Source: Bacillota bacterium
GTDB taxonomy: Bacteria > Bacillota > Clostridia > Saccharofermentanales > DTU023
Assembly: GCA_023622515.1 (NCBI GenBank)
Contig: JAMNZB010000057.1
Coordinates: 16,243-80,242, forward strand
DNA length: 64,000 nucleotides
Direction of reading: 5' to 3'
The notes beneath the pieces are model-generated. The model saw only the letters and a program-made list of their open reading frames with translations, did no database searches and was not told the DNA's origin. Positions 1-30,925 of the stretch are shown piece by piece. Numbering within the stretch: the stretch's first letter is position 1; every line of letters begins with the position of its first letter. Made by a program: the position numbers and the translations under genes.

Positions 1-549
1 CAGGGCAAGATTGATAGGTGCGGCCTGGCAGCCCGGGATATTACCCTAACTGCCCAGAGGCCCTACCTGATCCGCGATACAGTCTATGAGAATATTATCT
101 ATCCTCTGCGGATTAGAAAGATTTCAGGCAAAGACAGAACGAAAAAAGAGAAGGAAATAGATGACTACCTGGCCCTCTTTAATCTTCATGAAAAAAAGAA
201 TCAATACAGTCTGAGTTTGTCCAGCGGAGAAAGGCAGAAGCTATCTTTAATCAGGGCCCTGATTTTTGATCCGGAACTACTAATCATTGATGAGAGTCTT
301 TCCAACATGGATATAGAGAGTTCGGAGAAAATGGAGAAAATAATCCTTGACCGCCAGGCCGGTCAAGGGAAGACTTGCATCCTCATAAGCCATCAAATGT
401 CTTGTGTGTATCGGCTCTGCCAGCAAGTCCATTTTTTTTCCTCAGGCAGAATCCTTGAAAGTGCCTCTCGGGACCAGATTTTTCATAGATCGACAAATCC
501 CTTGGTAAGGAAATATATAGACAGTCAAAAGATAGGAGTAAAAGCTTAG
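1..549 (+). CDS. ABC transporter ATP-binding protein, C-terminal part (N-terminus lies upstream of the window)
   Basis: Frame 1 is open from base 1 (QGKIDRCGLAARDITLTAQRPYLIRDTVYENI...) into the listed 217..549 ORF. It has an ABC signature-like LSSGERQKLSLIRAL, Walker B LLIIDESLSNMD and H-loop-like ILISHQ. It lies directly upstream of two moeA genes, so a molybdate/tungstate importer ATPase is plausible but not shown. Confidence 0.8.
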   Translation, partial: QGKIDRCGLAARDITLTAQRPYLIRDTVYENIIYPLRIRKISGKDRTKKEKEIDDYLALFNLHEKKNQYSLSLSSGERQKLSLIRALIFDPELLIIDESLSNMDIESSEKMEKIILDRQAGQGKTCILISHQMSCVYRLCQQVHFFSSGRILESASRDQIFHRSTNPLVRKYIDSQKIGVKA

Positions 550-1778
550 TGAAATTACTAAAGGTAGATACTTTGGCAGAGGCTCGAGAAAAACTTCTGA
601 AAAGTCCTTTTGTCCAAAACATAAAGACGATGAAGGTGCAAGTGGCTCAAAGCCTTGCTTGTATTCTGGCCGAGAACATAACCTCCCCCCATGCTGTCCC
701 CGCCTTCCGGCGGTCAACGGTAGACGGCTATGCCGTTCAATCTCAGGACACTATGGGGGCAACAGAGTCGATCCCGTCATTTCTAAAAATTCTTGGAGAA
801 GTTGATATGGGGGAAGTCAATCAATTCCGGATAGATGCCGGAGAGTGCGTTTATGTTCCCACCGGCGGTATGTTGCCTCAAGGGGCCGACGCAATGGTGA
901 TGGTGGAATTTTGTGAGCCCTTTTCAGAAGATTCTCTTGCCGTCTATAGGTCGGTGGCACCCGGCAACAATCTTGTCGAGATTGGTGATGACATACAAAT
1001 GGGCAGCCCGGTTTTTGAAAAAGGCAGGAAAATTGGAGCGCATGAGATTGGGGTTTTATCCTCTATGGGGATAGGGGAGGTGGAAGTCTTTCAGCCCTTC
1101 ACGATAAGCATCTTCTCTACGGGAGATGAACTTATCGGAACTGATGAAAAACTAAGTCCGGGTAAGGTCTATGATATCAACACCCCTGCCTTAGAGGCAC
1201 TCTGTCTTGAAGCCGGCTTTCGTGTACTTGAAAAGGGGGTCCTGCCCGATGAAAGAAATGTCCTGGAGAAGGCGGTTGCCGGAGCAATGGAAACTGCAGA
1301 CATAGTGTTGGTGTCAGGTGGCAGCTCGCAAGGCAAAAAGGATATGACTGCTGAAATATTGGATGCGGCTTCAGCTGGCGGCCTGATGACTCATGGTTTA
1401 GCTTTAAAGCCCGGAAAGCCTACGATTACCGCCTATGACCGGAGAACAGAGACCTTGCTTTTTGGCCTGCCCGGTCATCCGGTTGCAGCTGTAATGATTT
1501 TCAGATTTTTAGTCCTTTGGCTTAAGGACCAATACTTGGGCAAAGAAAAGGAAAGACCCCTTTGGGCGGAGCTAACGGCCAGTATTGCCGGGGATTCCGG
1601 TAAGGAAACCGTTCAACTGCTTTATTTGGAGGAAACGGAAGAGGGCTATTTGGCGCATCCGATTTTCAGTAAGTCAGGACTCATGACCGGTCTTAGCAAG
1701 GCAGAAGGGTATACCTTGATCGGGAGAAATACAGAGGGTATCAAAAAGGGAGACAAAGTAAAGGTATACTTATTTTAG
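549..1778 (+). CDS. moeA: Molybdopterin molybdenumtransferase MoeA
   Basis: 409 aa with a GTG start that shares one base with the upstream TAG stop (TAGTG). MoeA-type motifs are present: RRSTVDGYAV, STGDEL, VSGGSSQGKKD and GLPGHPVAA, at typical MoeA length. Confidence 0.85.
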   Translation: MKLLKVDTLAEAREKLLKSPFVQNIKTMKVQVAQSLACILAENITSPHAVPAFRRSTVDGYAVQSQDTMGATESIPSFLKILGEVDMGEVNQFRIDAGECVYVPTGGMLPQGADAMVMVEFCEPFSEDSLAVYRSVAPGNNLVEIGDDIQMGSPVFEKGRKIGAHEIGVLSSMGIGEVEVFQPFTISIFSTGDELIGTDEKLSPGKVYDINTPALEALCLEAGFRVLEKGVLPDERNVLEKAVAGAMETADIVLVSGGSSQGKKDMTAEILDAASAGGLMTHGLALKPGKPTITAYDRRTETLLFGLPGHPVAAVMIFRFLVLWLKDQYLGKEKERPLWAELTASIAGDSGKETVQLLYLEETEEGYLAHPIFSKSGLMTGLSKAEGYTLIGRNTEGIKKGDKVKVYLF

Positions 1779-1788
1779 ACAGGAAAAA

Positions 1789-3699
1789 ATGATGAAAAAA
1801 AGAAGGTTATATTTAGAAAATACTCCGGCAGAAGAAGCCTTGGAAAAATATATGGCAGCCCTGGCAGGCAAGCTTCAGCTTAACTATGAAGAGATACCCG
1901 TGGTGGAATCTCTGGGTAGAAAGACTAAAGAGGCTGTCATGGCAAAATATTCCTCCCCCATGTTTAATGCGGCAGCTATGGATGGAATAGCGGTTATAGC
2001 TGAACGAACTTATGGGGCTAGCGAGGTTAATCCCCTTATCTTGGAAGAAAACAGGGACTACATCTATGTGGATACAGGTGACCCCATAAATGAGCCTTAT
2101 AATGCTGTGATTATGGCTGAGGATTTAATCGAGCAAGGGGAGGGGAAACTCAAAATTTTAGCCTCTGTTCCCCGCTGGAATGATATAAGGCCTGTTGGGG
2201 AGGATATTGTAGCAGGCGAGATGATTATTCCCGGCAAGCATATTATCCGGGCCATAGATATCGGTGTCCTGTTGTCCGCCGGTATAACAGAAGTTAAGGT
2301 TATTAAGCAGCCCGAAGTTGCGATTTTTCCAACCGGAAGTGAGCTGATAGAAGCAGGGGAAGAACCCCAAGAAGGAAGCATCGTGGAATCAAATTCCCGA
2401 ATGTTTGAGAACATGGTAACCGAGCAAGGGGGACGAGCAAGACGCTTTCCCATCCTTGCAGATGACTATGAGATTATACGAGCTAAGGTTCAAGCAGCTG
2501 TTCGAGACCATGATTTAGTTATTATAAATGCCGGTTCCAGTGCGGGAAGGGAAGATTATACCGTCCACGTGCTGGAAGAATTAGGCGAGGTCATTATTCA
2601 TGGTGTTGCCATTAAGCCGGGCAAGCCGGTTATTCTGGCTATTGTCGAAGGAAAGCCGGTAGTTGGTCTCCCGGGCTACCCGGTTTCTGCCTATATTGCC
2701 TTTAAAAATTTTGTTTCTCCTATTCTCAGACTTTTAGCAGGCCAAGGCGCGGAGGAAACAAAAAGGGTAAAAGCAGTCATCACAAAAAGACTGATATCCT
2801 CTTTGAAGCATAGGGAGTATATTCGAGTCAAAGTAGGGGATGTTGCCGGAAAGATGGTGGCATCACCTCTAGCTAGGGGAGCAGGCGCTGCCATGTCCTT
2901 AATTCGAGCAGACGGCTTTTGTGTAATAGACCAAAACAGTGAAGGGATAGAGGCAGGAGAAGAAGTTGAAATAGAACTCTATAGGGATATTGACCAGGTT
3001 AAAAACACCTTGATGCTTGTTGGCAGCCATGATTTAATCTTGGACTTAATTGCTGATAAAATGTCTAATCTTACTGCCGATACCTATCTCTCAAGTACCC
3101 ACATAGGGTCTCTGGGGGGCTTGATGGCCTTAAGAAGGGGGGAGGCCCATATGGCACCTGTACACCTGCTTGACGAGGAAGAGGGACTTTACAACATTCC
3201 CTATGTGAAAAGACTTTTCGATGAACCCATGTCCGTTATTAAGGGAGTAGAAAGAATACAAGGGATTATGATAAAAAAAGGAAATCCTTTGAATATAAAG
3301 ACTTTGTCAGACTTAAGGAGAGTCCGGTTTGTTAACAGGCAAAGAGGAGCCGGTACAAGAGTTCTTTTAGATTACCTCCTGAGGAAGAAAGGTATAATAC
3401 CGGAAGAAATCAATGGTTATGCCCATGAAGCTGCTACCCATATGGCTGTGGCCGCTATGGTAAAAAGTCAAAGCGTAGATGCCGGGATTGGTATTTATTC
3501 TGCAGCTAAAGCAATGAACTTGGACTTTATTCCTATAGGAAAGGAAGAGTATGATTTTGTTATCCCTAACCGTTTCTTAGATTTAGCTCACGTTCAAATC
3601 TTTATCTCTATCCTGAAGTCTAGGGATTTTAAGGACGGTTTGCTTGAATTGGGCGGCTATGGTTGGTTGAAGGCGGGAGAGGTTATTGCGGTAAAATAG
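1789..3699 (+). CDS. Second MoeA paralog fused to a C-terminal periplasmic-binding-protein-like domain
   Basis: 636 aa. The first ~400 aa repeat the MoeA motifs (AAMDGIAV, PTGSELI, INAGSSAGREDY, GLPGYPVSAY). The last ~230 aa (LMLVGSHDLILDLIAD ... GYGWLKAGEVI) look like a substrate-binding (PBP-type) domain. The domain call is from pattern recognition only. Confidence 0.75.
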   Translation: MMKKRRLYLENTPAEEALEKYMAALAGKLQLNYEEIPVVESLGRKTKEAVMAKYSSPMFNAAAMDGIAVIAERTYGASEVNPLILEENRDYIYVDTGDPINEPYNAVIMAEDLIEQGEGKLKILASVPRWNDIRPVGEDIVAGEMIIPGKHIIRAIDIGVLLSAGITEVKVIKQPEVAIFPTGSELIEAGEEPQEGSIVESNSRMFENMVTEQGGRARRFPILADDYEIIRAKVQAAVRDHDLVIINAGSSAGREDYTVHVLEELGEVIIHGVAIKPGKPVILAIVEGKPVVGLPGYPVSAYIAFKNFVSPILRLLAGQGAEETKRVKAVITKRLISSLKHREYIRVKVGDVAGKMVASPLARGAGAAMSLIRADGFCVIDQNSEGIEAGEEVEIELYRDIDQVKNTLMLVGSHDLILDLIADKMSNLTADTYLSSTHIGSLGGLMALRRGEAHMAPVHLLDEEEGLYNIPYVKRLFDEPMSVIKGVERIQGIMIKKGNPLNIKTLSDLRRVRFVNRQRGAGTRVLLDYLLRKKGIIPEEINGYAHEAATHMAVAAMVKSQSVDAGIGIYSAAKAMNLDFIPIGKEEYDFVIPNRFLDLAHVQIFISILKSRDFKDGLLELGGYGWLKAGEVIAVK

Positions 3700-3767
3700 A
3701 AGTTAGTGAAATTTTTTCCACATACTTTATAATATGGGAGGTAAAAACAGAAATAAGGAGAGGACCT

Positions 3768-4121
3768 ATGTTTGGAGAGAAAGTTAGAGCCTTGCGCTTA
3801 CAAAGGGAAATGACTCAAAAGGAACTTGCCGAAAAGATAGGTGTTTCTACCCGGAGTCTGATTAACTACGAAACCGGTAAATGCCATCCTCGCCAAGCTT
3901 CGGTCGTGGCCAAATTAGCGGAGGCCTTAGGGGTAACAGCTGATTTTTTATTTAATGATAGAGAATGTATGAGCAAAACAAGTGAGGCAATGGATGCTGA
4001 AAATTTAGTTCAGCAGTTGTCGGCCTTATTTACCGGGGGCAAACTCAGCAAGGCTGACCGGGATGCGGCGATGCAAAGCTTGCAAAAAGCCTACTGGGAC
4101 GGACTAAAAACAGAGGAATGA
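3768..4121 (+). CDS. XRE-family helix-turn-helix transcriptional regulator
   Basis: The ATG at 3768 is preceded by AAGGAGAGG. The N-terminus MFGEKVRALRLQREMTQKELAEKIGVSTRSLINYETGK is a classic Cro/C1 HTH. The in-frame 3663 extension has no such support. Confidence 0.8.
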   Translation: MFGEKVRALRLQREMTQKELAEKIGVSTRSLINYETGKCHPRQASVVAKLAEALGVTADFLFNDRECMSKTSEAMDAENLVQQLSALFTGGKLSKADRDAAMQSLQKAYWDGLKTEE

Positions 4122-5738: not shown

Positions 5739-6179
5739 ATGTGGGTTTATTGGTTGATTATTATCCTTTTGGCTATTGTTGCGGAATTAGCCACCATAAA
5801 TTTGGTAAGTATTTGGTTTGCCCTTGGAGCTGCTGTTGCCTTGCTGGCTGACTTGTTGTCAGTCAAGCAAACGGTTCAAATCCTTTTGTTTTTCGTTGTT
5901 TCCTTTATCGGAATTATCGTCTTTCTTATCGTTTTCCGTCCTAGGATGCAAAAAGCACAGGGCAAGCTCGAATCAACCAATGCAGATAGAATTATCGGCC
6001 GCGAGGCAGTCGTTATAAAAGAAATCAAACCCTATGAAAACCTTGGCCAAATAAGAGTCCTGGGGCAAATTTGGAGTGCTGTTTCTGTAGATGAAGAAGA
6101 ATCCATACCAGTGGATACAAAGGTGAAAGTTGTTGGAATCAAAGGTGTGCGCGCTGAGGTCTGCCTGTTGGATGAGTAA
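5739..6179 (+). CDS. NfeD-family membrane protein
   Basis: 146 aa with two or three N-terminal TM helices and a C-terminal soluble beta-domain (GQIRVLGQIWSAVS...VKVVGIKGVRAEV). It sits in the classic position upstream of an SPFH gene. Confidence 0.75.
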   Translation: MWVYWLIIILLAIVAELATINLVSIWFALGAAVALLADLLSVKQTVQILLFFVVSFIGIIVFLIVFRPRMQKAQGKLESTNADRIIGREAVVIKEIKPYENLGQIRVLGQIWSAVSVDEEESIPVDTKVKVVGIKGVRAEVCLLDE

Positions 6180-6298
6180 TTTGCTCTTTAACAAAGAGTC
6201 AGGAAGTAATCCCTTAATAAAATCAGAGCGTATGTCTTCAAAGCGCTCAAACAAACTATAAGCTCAAACAAAGTATAAAAAGTATAAGGAGAAGAAAT

Positions 6299-7300
6299 AT
6301 GCTATTAGCCCTACCGGTAAAATTATCCCCCATTATTGCCCTAGTTGTCATTTTGCTCGTGGTTATTATTAAAAATATCCGTGTTGTTCCCCAAGCCTAT
6401 GCCTATATTGTGGAGCGCTTGGGAACCTATAAAGCGACTTGGGGAGTGGGACTTCATACTAAGGTGCCTTTTATTGATACTGTCGCAGAAAAAATTTCCT
6501 TAAAAGAGAAGGTCGCTGATTTCCCACCACAAGCGGTTATCACAAAAGATAACGTTACCATGCAGATTGACACCGTTATTTTCTATCAGGTGGTGGACCC
6601 CAAGTTGTACACCTATGGCATTGAAAACCCTATTGATGCCATTGAAAACTTGTCTGCAACAACCTTGAGAAACATCATTGGTGACTTAGAACTGGACGAT
6701 ACTCTGACTTCCCGTGATCACATTAATACTCAAATGCGCTTGATTTTGGATGAAGCGACAGATGCCTGGGGCATTAAGGTTAATCGGGTTGAGCTTAAAA
6801 ATATTATTCCGCCCACAGAAATTCAGGATGCCATGGAACGGCAGATGAAAGCGGAACGGGTCAAAAGGGAAAAGATTCTTTTAGCTGAAGGTGAGAAAGA
6901 ATCAAAAATTTTGGTCGCTGAAGGGGAACGCGAAGCTGAGATTCTACGGGCTGATGCAAAAAAGCAAAAGGATATTCTTGAAGCAGAAGGACGGGCCCAG
7001 GCCATACTTAGTGTCCAGGAGGCCACCGCCAAAGGGCTTAAAATGATAAAAGATGTACAGCCGGATGACGGGCTTATTAGCCTGCAAGCCCTAGATACGA
7101 TGAAAATAGTTGCTGACGGAAAAGCAACCAAGATTATTATTCCTTCTGAACTGCAATCTTTAGCCGGCTTGGCCGTTTCTATGAAAGAAATTCTGGCTGA
7201 TAGCGAGATACATGGCGAAGAGAATTCCCCAACAAGTCCCCAAAGGCCGGAAAGATCAAGACCCGGCAGCCAAGGTGAAAATCCGACTCGCAGTCTCTAG
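6299..7300 (+). CDS. SPFH/Band-7 (stomatin/QmcA-like) membrane protein
   Basis: 333 aa with an N-terminal TM helix and an SPFH core (VVPQAYAYIVERLGTYKATWGVGLH ... TLRNIIGDLELDDTLTSRD ... WGIKVNRVELKNI). A coiled-coil E/A/K-rich region and a proline-rich tail follow. Confidence 0.9.
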   Translation: MLLALPVKLSPIIALVVILLVVIIKNIRVVPQAYAYIVERLGTYKATWGVGLHTKVPFIDTVAEKISLKEKVADFPPQAVITKDNVTMQIDTVIFYQVVDPKLYTYGIENPIDAIENLSATTLRNIIGDLELDDTLTSRDHINTQMRLILDEATDAWGIKVNRVELKNIIPPTEIQDAMERQMKAERVKREKILLAEGEKESKILVAEGEREAEILRADAKKQKDILEAEGRAQAILSVQEATAKGLKMIKDVQPDDGLISLQALDTMKIVADGKATKIIIPSELQSLAGLAVSMKEILADSEIHGEENSPTSPQRPERSRPGSQGENPTRSL

Positions 7301-7323: not shown

Positions 7324-8481
7324 ATGTTACGCGGCTTATACTTCAAAAATTTCTCGCTGCTTCGTGAGTTTCATCTTGGTTTAGGCCAGTCCGATCTAGC
7401 GGAAAGGAAGCCTGTAAAAGAGAGTCATGAGCGAGCTCGTGAGCTTGGCTCTTTGGTAGGCCTTATCGGTAAGAATAGTAGTGGGAAAAGTACTATTTTT
7501 GAAGGGCTGGCCTTTCTTCGTGATATCCTCTTGTTTAGTCTTGCGGAAGCGGCCAGCAGGGAGGAACGGGGCGGATTTGCCCGTTTACGGTCTCATGAGG
7601 CCGAAGCCGGTGAGGAGATGGTCCTGTCGGTTATCTTGGACGACAAGCAGAATTATTTTTTATATAGCTTGGTCTTAAATGCCGATCGATATGAGCGCCC
7701 TTACATCCAGGAAGAAACACTCAGGCTTTATGCCAAGGAAGGCGGGACAAAAAAAGACCTTATTTCCTTAAAGGAGAGGCAACTTTCCTTTCTTTCGCCT
7801 GAGGGTGAAGAGCGGAAAATTCATCTTGAAGATGGGAAGAAAACAGCCTTGTCTTTTTTAGGCAGAGTAAAGGAGTTTCCGCTCTTGCGCTACGTCTATC
7901 ACAGTTTGACAAGGGTTTTTGTCTATCGCCTTTTGCCCGAGCGGGAAAGTCGGCCATATAGAGAGGCAGGAGGCCATAAGCATTTGAAAGAGGGGCTGCA
8001 CAATCTTGAAAATGTGCTTGCCTATCTTGAAGGGCAAGATGCGTCAGCCTATTATGACTGGCTAAACCGGGCACTGGATAAAATTCCCCAATTTTCTTTT
8101 CGCGGTGAGCGCTTTTCGCTCGAAAAAATGAGTCCGGGTGAACGGAAATTATTTGAAATGCTTGTTCTTCTGGCCAATAACTATTCACTCCTCTGTTTTG
8201 ATGAGCCGGATGTTAGCTTATATTACAAGTTGATTGAGGCACTTCTGAAGGAAGTGCGCGACTACACCCTAAGAGTGGACAATGCCCAAATCTTTATAAC
8301 CACCCATAATACCAATATGCTGCAAGGCCTGCGACCGGAAGAGGTCTGGGTCTTGGAGCGGTCCGGACTAAACAATGCGACGGCGCGCCCGGCAGACCGG
8401 GATCCCCTTGTTCGTGCCATGTATGAGGAGGGTATCGACATGGGAACGCTCTGGTATGGTGGATATTTGGGAGAGGGATAG
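7324..8481 (+). CDS. ABC-type (AAA_15/AAA_21-like, SMC/OLD-like) ATPase without transmembrane or substrate-binding partners
   Basis: 385 aa. The N-terminus LRGLYFKNFSLLREF is typical of the family. Walker A is GKNSSGKST, the signature-like motif is MSPGERKLFEMLVLL, Walker B/D-loop is LLCFDEPDVSLY, and the H-loop-like motif is IFITTHN. Confidence 0.75.
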   Translation: MLRGLYFKNFSLLREFHLGLGQSDLAERKPVKESHERARELGSLVGLIGKNSSGKSTIFEGLAFLRDILLFSLAEAASREERGGFARLRSHEAEAGEEMVLSVILDDKQNYFLYSLVLNADRYERPYIQEETLRLYAKEGGTKKDLISLKERQLSFLSPEGEERKIHLEDGKKTALSFLGRVKEFPLLRYVYHSLTRVFVYRLLPERESRPYREAGGHKHLKEGLHNLENVLAYLEGQDASAYYDWLNRALDKIPQFSFRGERFSLEKMSPGERKLFEMLVLLANNYSLLCFDEPDVSLYYKLIEALLKEVRDYTLRVDNAQIFITTHNTNMLQGLRPEEVWVLERSGLNNATARPADRDPLVRAMYEEGIDMGTLWYGGYLGEG

Positions 8482-8483
8482 GC

Positions 8484-9176
8484 ATGCTGATTGAAGTATT
8501 AAGTGAAGATCGATCAGCGATCCCGGTTTTAGAGCACTTCCTTGGGGAAGAAGTAAAAAGACGCAAGCAAAAGTATGGCATGAACTTTCGCCCGCATCGC
8601 GGCATAGGTAGACTTGCCGATGACCCGCACTGTCCCCCCGCCATAAACAAGACGGGCCTTTATGATTTGCTTCCGGCTAAGCTTCGTGCCTATGAAAAAC
8701 TCAGTAAAAAATTCAACATTTTACTTGTTGTCGTTCATGACGCAGACGAAAAGGACGAGGATTCTTTTTATCAACAATTGGAATATCTGTTTCGTACTTT
8801 CAGCCCAAGCCACTTTTTTGTAATCGGCATTGCTGTAGAGGAGGTTGAAGCCTGGCTGCTTGGTGATTTTCAGGCTATTCAAAAAGCCTATCCTACTGCT
8901 GATAAAAAAATGTGGCAGACCTATCGGCAAGATAGTGTTTGCGGAACCTGGGAACTTCTTGCTCGGATTGTAGAGGGGAAGAAAAGGGCTAAAGAGTTGA
9001 TACGACTGGGCTATCCCGCAGTTGGTATTTACAAAAGTGAATGGGCGAAGAATATTGCCCCCTATCTGGTGGCTGAAAGAAATCGGTCCCCCAGTTTCCG
9101 GAAGTTTTTTACCCGTTTCCGGAACATTCTTTCCCTGGCAGAAGAAAGGCAAAATGATTCAGGGGGTGTGTCATGA
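8484..9176 (+). CDS. Toprim-like protein resembling the DUF4276 family (possible nuclease effector)
   Basis: 230 aa. It has an N-terminal acidic strand MLIEVLSEDRSAIPVLEHFL, a DxD-type acidic cluster LLVVVHDADEKDED, EEVEAWLLGD, and a C-terminal SPSFRKFFTRF. It starts 2 nt after the ATPase stop. The family assignment is from memory of the family pattern, not from a search. Confidence 0.55.
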   Translation: MLIEVLSEDRSAIPVLEHFLGEEVKRRKQKYGMNFRPHRGIGRLADDPHCPPAINKTGLYDLLPAKLRAYEKLSKKFNILLVVVHDADEKDEDSFYQQLEYLFRTFSPSHFFVIGIAVEEVEAWLLGDFQAIQKAYPTADKKMWQTYRQDSVCGTWELLARIVEGKKRAKELIRLGYPAVGIYKSEWAKNIAPYLVAERNRSPSFRKFFTRFRNILSLAEERQNDSGGVS

Positions 9177-10405
9177 GTCAGGCTGGCTCCGGAAGGCAGG
9201 AGAAGCGAAAGGGCCAAGAGCAGACGGAAAGCTGTAATCCCTTTGCCTGTGTGGCTCCCGAGGCCATGTATATCCATGTTCCCTTCTGTGAGAGCAAGTG
9301 CCATTACTGTAATTTTTACAGTATTAAGGCGAATAAAGCAGAGCGGGCAGCTTATGTTGACTTGCTCTTGCTGGAACTAAGGGAAAGGGCGAGAGAACTT
9401 ACGGCTTCAGGTGTGGCAAAACGTCCCTTGCGCTCCATTTACTTTGGCGGCGGAACGCCCGGTATTATGTCTCCGGGGGAAATTGAAAAGATTCTCTTAG
9501 AAATAAGCAGGCACTGGTCATTTGCTTCTGATATAGAAATTACCCTGGAAGCTAACCCGGGTTCGGATTTTGCGGAAAAAACCGCTGGCTTTAAGCAGCT
9601 TGGCATAAACCGCCTGAGTCTTGGTTTGCAAACTACGGACAATAAAAAGTTGGCCGCCTTAGGCCGCCGGCATACACGGGAAGATTTTGACCACAGCCTT
9701 GAAGCTGCCTATCGGGCAAATTTTACCAATATTTCCCTAGACTTGATGCTTGGCCTGCTTGGTGAAAGCTTTGATTCTTTTCAAGAGAATCTAGAGCTTG
9801 TCCTAACCTATAAAACACCGCACATTTCTTTCTATAGCTTGCAAATTGAAGAGGGGACAGCCCTGGCAAGGCAAGTTCGCGCCCGGCCCGATTTAGTCCC
9901 GGAGGAGGCCGAAGAACGTAAAATGTATCACTACCTCCTGGAAAGAGTGGAGGCGGAGGGGCTCCTCCCCTATGAAATTTCTAATGCCGCTAAGCCGGGC
10001 TTTGAATCCCGTCATAATTGTGTGTATTGGCGGGCGGAGCCCTATTATGGCTTAGGTCCGGCTGCCAGCTCCTACGTCTTTGGGTTGAGAAGTAGTAATC
10101 TTGCTGACTATAGTGCCTGGGCAGAGGCCATTTCTACGGGTAATTTTTCCAAAGCCTGTGTTATTGAGGAAGATGTCGATGGGACTGGCGCCCGCAAAGA
10201 ATTTATGATGCTGGGCTTCCGTCTGCTTGCCGGAATCTCAAAAGAGGCATACCGTAGCCTGTTTAAGGAAGAAATGGATGAGCGGTTTTCAGCAGAGCTA
10301 GGCTTGCTTCTCAAAAAGAAATATATTGAGGTAAGGGCGGAAGGCTACCGACTCACGGCCTTAGGTCTTGATTATGCCAACCGGGTTTTTGGAGAATTTA
10401 TCTAA
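9173..10405 (+). CDS. hemW: Radical SAM heme chaperone HemW (HemN-like, oxygen-independent coproporphyrinogen oxidase family)
   Basis: Radical SAM motif CESKCHYCNF, plus GGGTP and a HemN C-terminal-like region. The ATG at 9173 overlaps the upstream stop (ATGA). An alternative start at ATG 9266 (MYIHVPFC) would give the more usual N-terminus. Confidence 0.85.
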   Translation: MSQAGSGRQEKRKGQEQTESCNPFACVAPEAMYIHVPFCESKCHYCNFYSIKANKAERAAYVDLLLLELRERARELTASGVAKRPLRSIYFGGGTPGIMSPGEIEKILLEISRHWSFASDIEITLEANPGSDFAEKTAGFKQLGINRLSLGLQTTDNKKLAALGRRHTREDFDHSLEAAYRANFTNISLDLMLGLLGESFDSFQENLELVLTYKTPHISFYSLQIEEGTALARQVRARPDLVPEEAEERKMYHYLLERVEAEGLLPYEISNAAKPGFESRHNCVYWRAEPYYGLGPAASSYVFGLRSSNLADYSAWAEAISTGNFSKACVIEEDVDGTGARKEFMMLGFRLLAGISKEAYRSLFKEEMDERFSAELGLLLKKKYIEVRAEGYRLTALGLDYANRVFGEFI

Positions 10406-10459: not shown

Positions 10460-10488
10460 TTGACGCACTGATAGTAGAATGTTAGAGT
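10460..10488 (+). promoter_or_regulatory. Sigma-A-type promoter of the hrcA operon
   Basis: TTGACG (10460..10465), a 17-nt spacer, then TAGAGT (10483..10488), immediately upstream of the CIRCE element. Confidence 0.5.
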
Positions 10489-10491
10489 GGA

Positions 10492-10518
10492 TAAGCACTC
10501 GAAGCAGAAGAGTGCTAA
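10492..10518 (+). promoter_or_regulatory. CIRCE operator (HrcA binding site)
   Basis: TAAGCACTC-gaagcagaa-GAGTGCTAA differs from the consensus TTAGCACTC-N9-GAGTGCTAA at one position. It lies 22 nt upstream of hrcA and is flanked by a further inverted repeat, GTTAGA/TCTAAC. Confidence 0.88.
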
Positions 10519-27567: not shown

Positions 27568-29685
27568 TTGAAAAGGAAAGGTACTCTTTTAGTCGTTGCA
27601 CTTTTGTTGCTGGTACTTGTTATTGAGCTTGGTCTTTTATATAGAGAAAATATAACTGCAGAGCCGGTATACCCTCTTACAGGAATTATTACAGCGAATC
27701 CCTCCTGTAATATGAGGCGCGATCCCAACACTTCACGGGAGGCCTTACGTGAGCTGAAAAAAGATGTAAAGGTAACCGTCTTGGCTGAGGTAGAGGGGCA
27801 AATGGTGGGCAGCAACCCCCTTTGGTATGAGATTAGCTATGGAAATATCCATGGCTATGTCAGTGCCGAATTTGTTCGCCTGGAATATGAGATTCAGTTG
27901 CCGGACTACGGAATCCCTCAAGTCAACCTGCCGGCAACGGCGGATTTTCGTGCAGGCTTGGAGCAAAGCGGTTTTCCGCAAGATTATGTTAACGCCTTAA
28001 TGGCCCTGCATGAAAAATATCCGAATTGGAAGTTCACTCCGCTTTTTGTAAATTATAGTTTTGAAACAGCTGTCCGCGGAGAGTTCCGCCCCGGCGTCAA
28101 CATGGTAACAGCATCAGCTCCACCGGAGTATAAATCAAAAGCGGATGCCGATTTTAACTATGTGACCAATACCTGGTACCAATATGAACCGGGCTGGGTC
28201 GGAGCCTCAAAAGAGCTGATTGCCTTCCAGATGGATCCGCGCAACTTCCTTAATGAAATTCAAATTTTTCAATTTGAGAATCAAAGATATAACGGGGAAA
28301 TCCCCTATTTACAAGGACTCAATAATATTGTTCGCCATACCTTCATGGAACAATATCCTATCCAATATTTGGATACTGAAGGTGAGACCCGTACACTGGA
28401 TTCATCCTACCCCATGCTTATTGAAGAAGCAGGACGAAGTTCAGGTGTCAGCCCCTATCATCTGATTTCAAGAATTTTACAGGAAGTAGGCCCGCAGGGC
28501 TCCTCCTCGGTACGAGGTGATTATCTTGACATGAAGGGCTACTACAACTTCTTTAATATCGGTGCTTTCGGGGGTTCGGATCCACTCTACATGGGCCTTG
28601 TTACAGCTCGTGACGGGATTAAGGGATACTCTGAAATGAAGAATTCAAAGTTTCTCTTTCCCTGGATAAATCCTTCAAGAGCCATCAGCGGGGGAGCCAT
28701 TTTCCTCGGAGAAGACTATATTAACGTAGACCAACATACCCTATATTTACAAAAGTTTAACCTGGCCTCGCGCTATACCCGCCCTTTCACTCATCAATAC
28801 ATGGGTAATGTCCTGGCCCCGGAATATGAAGCCATTGATGTATATAAGGCCTATGAAAACATGGGTGCCCTGGCCGATGCCAAAGAATTTGTCATCCCTG
28901 TATTTTTAGATATGCCGGATGTTGTACCCTCGCCAACCGGAGGGGGGAATGTAAATAACTGGCTTAAGGCAATCTACATTAATGGAGAGCCGTTAACCGA
29001 TTTTCAGGCGAACCGCTATGAATACAAATTAAATATCAAGGCAGCCGGTAAAGGCTTGTTTGTTGAAGCCTTACCTTGGAATAGTGATGCCGCTGTCTAT
29101 GGCAACGGTGTATACCGTTTAGGTCCCGGTATCAATGAAATTATCATTCAGGTAAATTCACCGGCCGGAACGGCACGAAATTACCGCCTTAGCATCTATC
29201 AGTCAGAACATACTGCCCATCAAAATCCGTCCGACCTACCGAAAGTACAAAGTCATAATTATCAAATTAGCGCATTAGGCTACTTATACGGTGTTGACCC
29301 CAAGGTGGGGGCCAATGCAAGTGAATATCTGATTAGCCAGTATTCTCTGCCGGATAGCTATCGGCTAGTAGTGGTTGCGCAAGATGGCCAAACCCCGATA
29401 GAAAGAGCCGGCACAGGCTCTGTTCTTCAATTGAGGCGAAATGACCTGATTGTCAATGAGTTTCCTATTGTTATCCTGGGAGATATCAATGGTGATGGTT
29501 TAATCAATTTTGAAGACCAATTAATTTTACGCGAGCATATTTTAAACATGGGGAACAGCCTGACAACGGCACATAACTTAGCAATGGACATCAATCAGGA
29601 TGGCTACGTTAATATTATCGATCTCAAAATGTTAATAGACCATGTTAGAGGAGTATCAACGATTAACCAGTATTTAGGACTCTAG
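27568..29685 (+). CDS. Secreted/membrane-anchored multidomain protein: SH3b, putative glucosaminidase-type peptidoglycan hydrolase, cadherin-like beta-sandwich, C-terminal dockerin
   Basis: 705 aa starting at TTG, with an N-terminal TM/signal anchor. Domains read by eye:
- SH3b-like: NMRRDPNTSREALRELKKDVKVTVLAEVEG...WYEISYGNIHGYVSAEFV
- central hydrolase-like region: SGVSPYHLISRILQEVG ... TLYLQKFN
- cadherin-like: LKAIYINGEPLTDFQANRYEYKL
- two dockerin calcium loops: GDINGDGLINFED and MDINQDGYVNIID. Confidence 0.65.
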   Translation: MKRKGTLLVVALLLLVLVIELGLLYRENITAEPVYPLTGIITANPSCNMRRDPNTSREALRELKKDVKVTVLAEVEGQMVGSNPLWYEISYGNIHGYVSAEFVRLEYEIQLPDYGIPQVNLPATADFRAGLEQSGFPQDYVNALMALHEKYPNWKFTPLFVNYSFETAVRGEFRPGVNMVTASAPPEYKSKADADFNYVTNTWYQYEPGWVGASKELIAFQMDPRNFLNEIQIFQFENQRYNGEIPYLQGLNNIVRHTFMEQYPIQYLDTEGETRTLDSSYPMLIEEAGRSSGVSPYHLISRILQEVGPQGSSSVRGDYLDMKGYYNFFNIGAFGGSDPLYMGLVTARDGIKGYSEMKNSKFLFPWINPSRAISGGAIFLGEDYINVDQHTLYLQKFNLASRYTRPFTHQYMGNVLAPEYEAIDVYKAYENMGALADAKEFVIPVFLDMPDVVPSPTGGGNVNNWLKAIYINGEPLTDFQANRYEYKLNIKAAGKGLFVEALPWNSDAAVYGNGVYRLGPGINEIIIQVNSPAGTARNYRLSIYQSEHTAHQNPSDLPKVQSHNYQISALGYLYGVDPKVGANASEYLISQYSLPDSYRLVVVAQDGQTPIERAGTGSVLQLRRNDLIVNEFPIVILGDINGDGLINFEDQLILREHILNMGNSLTTAHNLAMDINQDGYVNIIDLKMLIDHVRGVSTINQYLGL

Positions 29686-29755
29686 CCTATAGCCTGCAGC
29701 CTACAGCTTAAGGGAGGGCTGGATTTACCTCTTTAAACTAGAAGGAGTTACTCTT

Positions 29756-30925
29756 ATGGATACAAAAAGTAGAAGAAAGCACGGCTTATTACTAGGGCTT
29801 TGCTTGCTGGCCTTGCTGTTGGCACAGATTCCGGTAGAGGCCCAAGGCGTTGTCGGTATGTCATCTCCCGATTTCGTTGAACGCGGTTATAGCATGACGG
29901 TGACGGTTACCGCTACAGGCGCTTCTGCCGGTGTTAACGGTGTAGAATTATACCTGATTTACGATGCCGCCAATTTTCAGTTTGTGAAAGTTAATTCAAC
30001 ATTCCTGGGTACTTTGGGCGGTTCTGTTACATCGCCTGCGGATGGCGGACTATTTGAACTGCAAGATACAACGGGTGGAGTTATTCAACTTTTAGCGGTC
30101 GATATTCCCTACACACCGGCAGATAATGTGATTGCCGTTTTGGAGTTTACAGCAAAGGCGGATGCCAATATTGGCCCTATCAGCTTTCAATTTAAAGATG
30201 GTTCTTTCGTACAAACCGTTAACGGCCGTGTTAATGCTACCAACGAAAAACTGGTTATGGAGATAACCGGTCAGACGGAAGCCCCTATTTCAGATACCCC
30301 CCTGCCTCCGGCAGAGCAGACAGAAGCTGCTGCAGAACCCGGTATTGACGTTCCCTATGATCCGAACAATCAAATAGCACCGGAAGGGCAGGGGACAGGA
30401 GATGGAGATGATTATAATATTGGTGCTTTAAACTCCGACCCTGCAGCAACGACGAAAGAAAGACGTACAGAGATAGTAAGTAAGCCGACCCTACCTGACA
30501 GCAAACGCACGGAGAGAACTGAAGAGGAAACCAAAACCCCCTTGCGTTCTGTTACCGGCCAAGCTTTGTATGCTCCGGAAGACGGCATGCCCTTAAGTAA
30601 AATTCCTGAAGGCTTCCAAGGTGGTATGGAAAAAATCCTGGGAGTCAACGTTCCGGTGGCAAAGTCTTCGGAGAAGGAGCTGAGCCTATATTATCTGAGA
30701 AATAGCCGCGGTGATGAGGATTTCTATACCTATGAAGAATCAACAGAGCGTTTTAAGTTCTATGATTTAGAAAAAGAAGCCGAGAAAGAGAGTGAGAGTA
30801 AATCGCGCTTTAGTGCCAAAGGGGGAAACGGAAACACCTGGAAAATTCTTTTAGTCTCTCTAATTGGCCTTTCAGCCCTGAGTATTATGATTTTCACCAT
30901 TTATCGGAATATACGTTTGAGATAA
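29756..30925 (+). CDS. Cohesin-like domain protein with C-terminal membrane anchor
   Basis: 389 aa with a signal peptide (LLGLCLLALLLAQIPVEAQG). The ~140-aa domain follows the cohesin pattern (YSMTVTVTATG...VNGVELYLIYDAANFQFVKV...VIAVLEFTAKADANIGPISFQF). An acidic, Pro- and Thr-containing linker and a C-terminal TM helix (WKILLVSLIGLSALSIMIFTIY) follow. Confidence 0.55.
   Translation: MDTKSRRKHGLLLGLCLLALLLAQIPVEAQGVVGMSSPDFVERGYSMTVTVTATGASAGVNGVELYLIYDAANFQFVKVNSTFLGTLGGSVTSPADGGLFELQDTTGGVIQLLAVDIPYTPADNVIAVLEFTAKADANIGPISFQFKDGSFVQTVNGRVNATNEKLVMEITGQTEAPISDTPLPPAEQTEAAAEPGIDVPYDPNNQIAPEGQGTGDGDDYNIGALNSDPAATTKERRTEIVSKPTLPDSKRTERTEEETKTPLRSVTGQALYAPEDGMPLSKIPEGFQGGMEKILGVNVPVAKSSEKELSLYYLRNSRGDEDFYTYEESTERFKFYDLEKEAEKESESKSRFSAKGGNGNTWKILLVSLIGLSALSIMIFTIYRNIRLR

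Follow-up and report, generated by a model that had tools for sequence, protein, structure and literature searches.

An ABC ATPase and DUF4276 gene pair of the HEC-01 family is linked to hemW and vertically inherited in a clade of Clostridia

A stretch of 64,000 nucleotides from a Bacillota bacterium (assembly GCA_023622515.1, contig JAMNZB010000057.1, positions 16,243 to 80,242; hereafter the window) carries two adjacent genes, encoding an ATP-binding cassette (ABC) ATPase (protein A) and a DUF4276 Toprim-like protein (protein B), followed by hemW. By their profile matches, the two proteins are a module of HEC-01 (Hma-embedded candidate 01), a catalogued candidate phage-defence family. In a large clade of Clostridia the A-B pair is vertically inherited under purifying selection and is linked to hemW. 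Our guarded preference is for the view that this branch of a HEC-01 nuclease module, of defence ancestry, has left the mobile gene pool and now resides in the clade as a core operon, A-B-hemW, that is passed on vertically. Resident A-B would then have a fixed cellular function, i.e. nucleic-acid surveillance or processing or lineage-wide innate immunity, and would not be an exchangeable defence-island cassette.

Family assignment of proteins A and B

Two intact open reading frames were present where an earlier reading of this DNA (the original prediction) had placed them (Table 1), separated by a 2-nt spacer (GC) between the TAG stop of A and the ATG of B, and all the motifs that it had quoted for both proteins were found in the translations. 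Protein A contains a Walker A motif (GKNSSGKST, residues 49–57), an ABC signature (MSPGERKLF), a Walker B motif (LLCFDEPDVSLY, in which LLCFDE comprises D293 and the catalytic Glu E294, at ~8200–8210 of the window) and an H-loop (FITTHN, H328). In protein B, the motifs LIEVLSEDRS, VVVHDADEKDED, EEVEAWLLGD and SPSFRKFF were read. The 3′ end of the B gene (9091–9132) holds a tandem, imperfect 21-nt duplication (76% identity) encoding SFRKFFT/RFRNILS.

Protein A matched Pfam AAA_21 at 1.9e-24, and AAA_15 and ABC_tran likewise above their thresholds. Protein B matched DUF4276 (PF14103) at 1.9e-07 (32.0 bits; gathering threshold, 30.2 bits), over profile positions 37–190 of 192. The predicted assignment of A as an ABC ATPase (AAA_15/AAA_21) and of B as a DUF4276 protein was thus upheld by Pfam thresholds and, also as predicted, no gene for a permease or binding-protein partner was found within 10 kb. 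PADLOC, a search that the original prediction had proposed, called HEC-01 for both proteins: A matched the hidden Markov model (HMM) of HEC-01A (PDLC04182) at 3.2e-62 (208.8 bits) and B that of HEC-01B (PDLC04205) at 4e-60 (201.2 bits), both over the full length. PADLOC matches of A to AriA, AbiLi and mad3 were far weaker than that to HEC-01A. No NCBIfam model was passed in a scan of A and B. The HEC-01A and HEC-01B matches of about 1e-60 indicated that the family was already catalogued, and the pair is therefore not of an uncharacterised flavour, as had been supposed.

HEC-01, which pairs an ABC ATPase with a TOPRIM-like protein, was defined from Hma defence systems, and the representative of Payne et al. 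gave no protection in E. coli (bioRxiv 10.1101/2024.01.29.577857). A cold-seep study reports protection of E. coli B by another HEC-01 representative, against one or more of T4, T5 and T7. The MADS system contains a DUF4276 homologue, Mad4, and some C-terminal domains of NsnC are DUF4276/Toprim-like (PMC12065111). Deletion of mad3 or mad4 lowers MADS defence. With two tests of HEC-01 and the need for Mad4 in MADS defence, the earlier statement that the effector family had no experimental characterisation was outdated.

Conservation of the motifs was counted over 80 species for A and 82 species for B. Residues G49, G54 and K55 of Walker A were invariant in A, as were E8, D9, D86, D88, E119, E120 and E122 in B, and 31 columns of B were invariant among 96 homologues. 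Candidate catalytic residues of B are E8, D86xD88 and E119/E120/E122.

Linkage of the pair to hemW in Clostridia

Scanning of species-representative genomes with B gave relatives in at least 594 species-level genomes. The best 80 relatives were all from Clostridia (Saccharofermentans, Fastidiosipila, Mageeibacillus, or unclassified Oscillospiraceae, Ruminococcaceae and Clostridiales), and B homologues at 60% and 48% identity shared the same neighbourhood. Among 1.84 billion cluster representatives, 1,478 belonged to the family as a whole at E ≤ 1e-3.

Of the 82 species examined, 81 had the order A-B-hemW, and the remaining locus ended at a contig edge. Around the intact A-B-hemW, at least four combinations of outer flanks were seen. 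The gene 5′ of A encoded a 164-aa protein (39/82), an SPFH protein (21/82) or an M28 peptidase (5/82), with other genes in the rest; hrcA lay 3′ of hemW in 43 of the 82 species and further off in 6 more, and a gene for an AMP-dependent ligase took this place in 13. In isolate YAD3003, A-B-hemW was located behind nth, recG, rsmD and coaD. The 164-aa protein encoded directly 5′ of A (e.g. L070, 8200–8691) belonged to no Pfam family and had a weak likeness to DivIVA/Wag31; in its subclade, the unit may include it as an additional member.

In 65 of 79 loci, a start codon of hemW overlapped the B stop codon, by 1, 4 or 8 nt and usually in the form ATGA or TGATG. In the window, the first in-frame ATG of hemW overlapped the B stop by 4 nt (ATGA), and a terminator scan gave no terminator-like site between B and hemW. 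A spacing of 97 nt between B and hemW was found in an 89%-identical relative (L086). In one Eubacteriales species (L001, 10693–11961; L002, 8501–9769), hemW alone was inverted and convergent with B, with a 4-nt overlap, and still sat between B and hrcA.

Scanning of metagenomes anchored on HrcA gave mostly outgroups (30–37% identity) and three in-clade loci. Neither A nor B was found in the 77 HrcA-anchored outgroup loci of Clostridia, even where hemW adjoined hrcA. Two of the outgroup loci, viewed in detail (L170 and L098, 3000–9000), had the order spoIIP-lepA-hemW-hrcA. The slot directly 5′ of hemW was occupied by A-B in the clade and by lepA in these outgroups.

Vertical inheritance and purifying selection

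For the 39 species in which every gene was present, the pairwise distances of A and of B followed those of HrcA, DnaK and HemW (Mantel r of 0.83–0.91), compared with 0.79–0.86 for the housekeeping genes against each other. Mean pairwise identity was 0.38 for A and 0.47 for B. Against the 89%-identical relative, dN/dS was 0.127 for A and 0.130 for B, and 0.04–0.37 for the neighbours.

The GC content of A-B equalled that of its neighbours, no flanking repeats were found around the pair and no tRNA gene was present; a recent insertion of A-B was rejected on these grounds. In place of the context usual for a defence system (Hma or other defence loci, mobile elements), the pair had housekeeping genes around it, showed nothing indicative of a mobile element and was vertically inherited. 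The conflict system of the original prediction was inferred from architecture, but the housekeeping context, co-divergence with DnaK and HrcA, purifying selection, fixed A-B-hemW order and lack of any mobile-element sign spoke against it.

Degeneration of ATPase motifs in the clade

Walker A, P295, Q322 and the H-loop of A were conserved in the clade. The residue after the Walker B acid (E294 in the window) was Glu in 14 of the 80 species and mostly Thr, Asn or Ser in the others; a typical degenerate Walker B was IFIETPDKDLYHD (A genes of loci L006–L085; 66/80 without Glu). The ABC signature was also degenerate (ESPDKLF) in a large Saccharofermentans-like subclade. Canonical motifs were retained in the window A (DE, SPGE) and in all mobile cousins of the pair, described below. 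Loss of the catalytic Glu with Walker A and the H-loop kept suggests that selection maintains nucleotide binding and not fast hydrolysis. The clade's loss of the catalytic Glu would agree with the regulation of GajA by nucleotide binding.

In B, the residues P37-H38-R39-G40, K66 and Y177-P178 were invariant within the clade and had no counterpart in the mobile cousins.

More speculatively, and with rather low probability, A-B may have become a domesticated core machine that is no longer anti-phage, in which a mostly non-hydrolysing ATP switch would control a Toprim-like nuclease, acting with HemW or co-regulated with it, for example in RNA/DNA processing or quality control. If so, the clade would provide a documented example of a defence cassette that became a housekeeping gene, and HEC-01 calls in these genomes would be false positives for immunity.

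Mobile cousins of the pair

Cousins of B with 32–38% identity were found in a Rahnella prophage, on a conjugative Pseudomonas plasmid and in 4 of 2.9 million viral contigs. An A-like partner was always present and hemW never. The Rahnella pair (L087, 5712–7654; Rahnella aquatilis HX2 plasmid pRA1, 571 kb) lay inside a plasmid-borne prophage, flanked by the gene of a late antiterminator and by the lysis cassette, where accessory genes of prophages are typically carried. Scores against the PADLOC HEC-01 models were 302–643 bits for the mobile cousins, which form the model core, versus ~200 bits for the clade. On a neighbour-joining tree, the mobile cousins occupied their own branch, apart from the clade. 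They are best read as support for a defence ancestry of the clade branch.

Structure models and a possible mechanism

The AlphaFold2 model of A had a pLDDT of 87.7, built on a limited alignment of the 22 proteins given by a word-indexed homologue search. In Foldseek, its top matches were GajA (8x5i) and the Thermus OLD nuclease (6p74), at ~1.7e-11, followed by Septu and retron PtuA, Rad50 and SMC heads. By sequence, the nearest solved protein was AriA (1.1e-7), over residues 264–331, i.e. the C-terminal motifs only. Thus, the predicted kinship of A with the ATPases of OLD, Gabija, PARIS and AbiL was borne out by profile, sequence and structure matches. Protein A is an OLD-like ABC ATPase and not of the RecF/RecN/SbcC type, because its relatives are GajA, OLD, AriA and PtuA and its SMC_N score of 29.8 bits is below the 40-bit cut-off. 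Membership of A in such a housekeeping clade, which the original prediction had wished to see checked, was rejected on the same SMC_N score, with GajA and OLD nearest and no RecF, RecN or SbcC model among the 25 NCBIfam matches listed.

The AlphaFold2 model of B (pLDDT 95.4) consisted of a beta-alpha-beta-alpha-beta-alpha-beta core, with strands at residues 2–7, 32–37, 79–86 and 111–117, and a helical C-terminal half. E8 directly followed strand 1, E119/E120/E122 directly followed strand 4, and D86xD88 lay where strand 3 ends. The Glu after strand 1 and the DxD at the end of strand 3 expected of a Toprim fold were thus both present in the model, and these residues were invariant in the 82 species. 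Searching of the viral structure library BFVD with the B model gave nothing significant (a weak RloB-like phage protein, probability 0.89), and the B profile found no solved relative among PDB sequences.

By analogy with OLD, Gabija GajA and PARIS AriA/AriB, the nucleotide state of A would hold B inactive or free it. A would be expected to dimerise around ATP, and freed B would cut nucleic acid in a metal-dependent manner by means of E8, D86xD88 and the cluster E119/E120/E122. Family membership, the fold of A, conservation of the motifs, vertical inheritance, purifying selection and the hemW linkage are shown by the present data; the A-B complex, the nuclease activity of B, its gating by ATP and the biological role of the pair are inferred.

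Comparison with known systems

The A-B pair shared with HEC-01 both protein families, their order and strand, and the predicted metal-binding acidic residues. It differed in that core members of the HEC-01 models are mobile (prophage, plasmid), whereas the clade pair is vertically inherited in a hemW operon outside Hma and defence loci; most clade members also lack the catalytic Glu of the ATPase.

PARIS likewise consists of a split ABC ATPase and a Toprim-type effector, and its AriA was the nearest solved protein to A by sequence. The effectors, however, belong to different families (DUF4276 for B, DUF4435 for AriB), the likeness of A is confined to the C-terminal motifs, and PARIS is found on phage satellites and in defence hotspots, whereas A-B is chromosomal and vertical. 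Membership in PARIS was rejected, as B had no Pfam match at E ≤ 1 except DUF4276 (none to DUF4435) and AriB was not among its PADLOC matches.

OLD and GajA gave the best structural matches of A and follow the same logic of an ABC ATPase with a Toprim nuclease, but their domains are fused whereas those of A and B are split, and A-B has no GajB-like helicase partner. The presence of two open reading frames and the lack of a Toprim_OLD Pfam match in B led to rejection of OLD/Gabija membership. AbiL/RloA-RloB membership was rejected since B had no RloB Pfam match at E ≤ 1; the match of A to PADLOC AbiLi (4.6e-26) was far below its HEC-01A score.

MADS and Menshen have DUF4276 in common with the pair, in Mad4 and in some NsnC domains, and A weakly matched the mad3 HMM (2.7e-15). 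No other mad or Menshen gene was found near A-B. MADS membership was rejected, with 37.4 bits for NF047739 (MAD3) against a cut-off of 420 and with unrelated neighbours.

RecF-RecR, a housekeeping ABC/SMC-like ATPase with a Toprim-domain protein, is a precedent for a vertically inherited core pair. However, A passed no RecF model and B matched no RecR model, and the Toprim of RecR is non-catalytic whereas B keeps an invariant E and DxD.

Weighing of the explanations

Several points weigh against a resident core operon of HEC-01 ancestry. Fixation by itself is no proof of a non-defence role, and the HEC-01 representative that protected E. coli B leaves a defence role possible. The clade sample was anchored on B, so genomes without the pair lie outside it. 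Linkage to hemW could be operon inertia: lepA-hemW is conserved in Firmicutes and, to our knowledge, has no functional link. Finally, the B model had no significant match in the PDB by Foldseek (best Toprim 3ksa_D, E 0.14, probability 0.63). Hence the Toprim-like label rests on motif placement and on published analyses, in which DUF4276 was placed in the Toprim superfamily (PMC12065111) and HEC-01B was termed TOPRIM-like by Payne et al. (bioRxiv 10.1101/2024.01.29.577857). The split ABC-ATPase and Toprim-like module of the original prediction stood in its Pfam and PADLOC matches and its motif placement, but not in a significant Foldseek match of B to a solved Toprim.

It is possible, although we think it rather unlikely, that A-B is an active HEC-01 anti-phage system of the abortive-infection type that happens to be fixed in this lineage; A would sense a phage cue, B would degrade DNA or tRNA, and hemW would be incidental. 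The strong HEC-01 HMM matches fit such a system, as do the embedding of HEC-01 in Hma defence systems, the protection of E. coli B by one HEC-01 representative, the need of MADS defence for Mad3 and Mad4, and the occurrence of cousins on plasmids and in a slot used by prophages for accessory genes; the greater divergence of A than of B may also suit a sensor. However, defence cassettes are usually patchy and exchanged, whereas A-B co-diverges with DnaK and HrcA in one operon. The dN/dS of 0.13 gives no sign of an arms race, no further defence gene lies nearby, 66 of the 80 species no longer have the ATPase's catalytic Glu, and the other HEC-01 representative gave no protection.

It is improbable that A, B and HemW form one three-component system, in which HemW would be a radical-SAM or heme/redox-linked regulator or modifier acting with the pair, or would share a substrate with it. 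The triplet is kept through changes in both flanks, its stop/start overlap is conserved, the inverted hemW is still adjacent, and B has clade-specific invariant surface residues that are not found in the cousins without hemW. Against these, HemW is an ordinary HemW equivalog (265 bits for the window protein against NCBIfam TIGR00539, cut-off 205), 97 nt separate B from hemW in L086, and operon inertia can account for the adjacency. In addition, hemW occurs without the pair in outgroups and the pair without hemW in cousins, indicating that neither generally needs the other.

Very improbable is a housekeeping ABC protein (a transporter or RecF/RecN/SbcC repair protein) with an unrelated non-nuclease B, or a decaying relic: the housekeeping neighbourhood and the weak SMC_N likeness would suit it, but that likeness is below threshold, no NCBIfam repair or transporter model was passed, the nearest relatives are OLD, GajA, AriA and PtuA with no permease partner, B is above the DUF4276 threshold, and decay is excluded by intact open reading frames in 80–82 species, invariant acidic residues and a dN/dS of 0.13.

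Surroundings of the unit in the window

On one strand, the window has the order moeA, moeA, a helix-turn-helix (HTH) gene, a gene for an M28 peptidase, nfeD, a gene for an SPFH protein, A and B, followed on that strand by hemW, hrcA, grpE, dnaK, dnaJ, prmA and gcvT/H/P; the remainder likewise contains housekeeping genes. The SPFH gene ends 23 nt before the start of A, and no terminator-like site was found between them in the terminator scan. nfeD and the SPFH gene are thus probably co-transcribed with A in the window genome. The SPFH flank, present in only 21 of the 82 species, does not belong to the conserved unit.

Table 1 Positions in the window of the A-B-hemW unit and its flanking features
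Feature	Position	Strand	Description	Basis
nfeD and SPFH/Band_7 gene	5739..7300	+	directly 5′ of A	translations, synteny
protein A	7324..8481	+	385 aa, ATG start, TAG stop; OLD/GajA/PtuA-like ABC ATPase (AAA_15/AAA_21), HEC-01A type	
protein B	8484..9176	+	230 aa, ATG start; DUF4276/HEC-01B, predicted Toprim-like metal-dependent nuclease	
hemW	9173..10405	+	radical-SAM heme chaperone family; third member of the A-B-hemW unit	
promoter-like site (TTGACG-17-TAGAGT), then CIRCE	10460..10518	+	just 5′ of hrcA	promoter scan and CIRCE match

The only CIRCE of the window (10492–10518, TAAGCACTC-N9-GAGTGCTAA) has one mismatch, with 0 expected by chance. Together with the promoter-like site before hrcA, it points to a separate heat-shock unit, with A-B-hemW outside. 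Heat-shock (CIRCE) control of A-B was rejected, the element being located 3′ of hemW and before hrcA. Some metagenomic copies of the species with protein P0024 (L004 and L005, 13291–14475) have an IS110-family transposase gene inserted between hrcA and grpE, which is missing from another (L003).

The two tandem moeA-like genes (549–3699) differ from a usual moeA in the second copy, whose 636-aa product is, from its translation, overlong for MoeA and has an extra C-terminal domain. The HTH gene (3663–4121), of Xre/RstR type, precedes the M28 peptidase gene. In the relative L001 (4636–5573), an HTH gene is followed by a gene for an M78 (ImmA-like) peptidase; the corresponding position of the window has no gene in the list of open reading frames. 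Elsewhere in the window (27568–30925), adjacent genes for a 705-aa protein with SH3 and dockerin and a 389-aa cohesin protein hint at surface complexes of the cellulosome type.

Significance

The protein families of this pair were already known; its fixation on the chromosome, its coupling to hemW and its partly degenerate ATPase motifs are new. Across hundreds of species, a listed defence candidate here behaves like a core gene pair: it has one locus, co-diverges with DnaK and HrcA, is under purifying selection and is translationally coupled to hemW. Unless there is further evidence, automated HEC-01 calls in these Clostridia should be left out of counts of defence islands. The gradual disappearance of the catalytic Glu within the clade is a natural experiment in which ATP binding can be set against hydrolysis in OLD-like systems. 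Either one innate-immunity module has stayed fixed for very long throughout a bacterial order, or a defence cassette was recruited to a cellular task; cultivable members of the clade would allow either reading to be tested.

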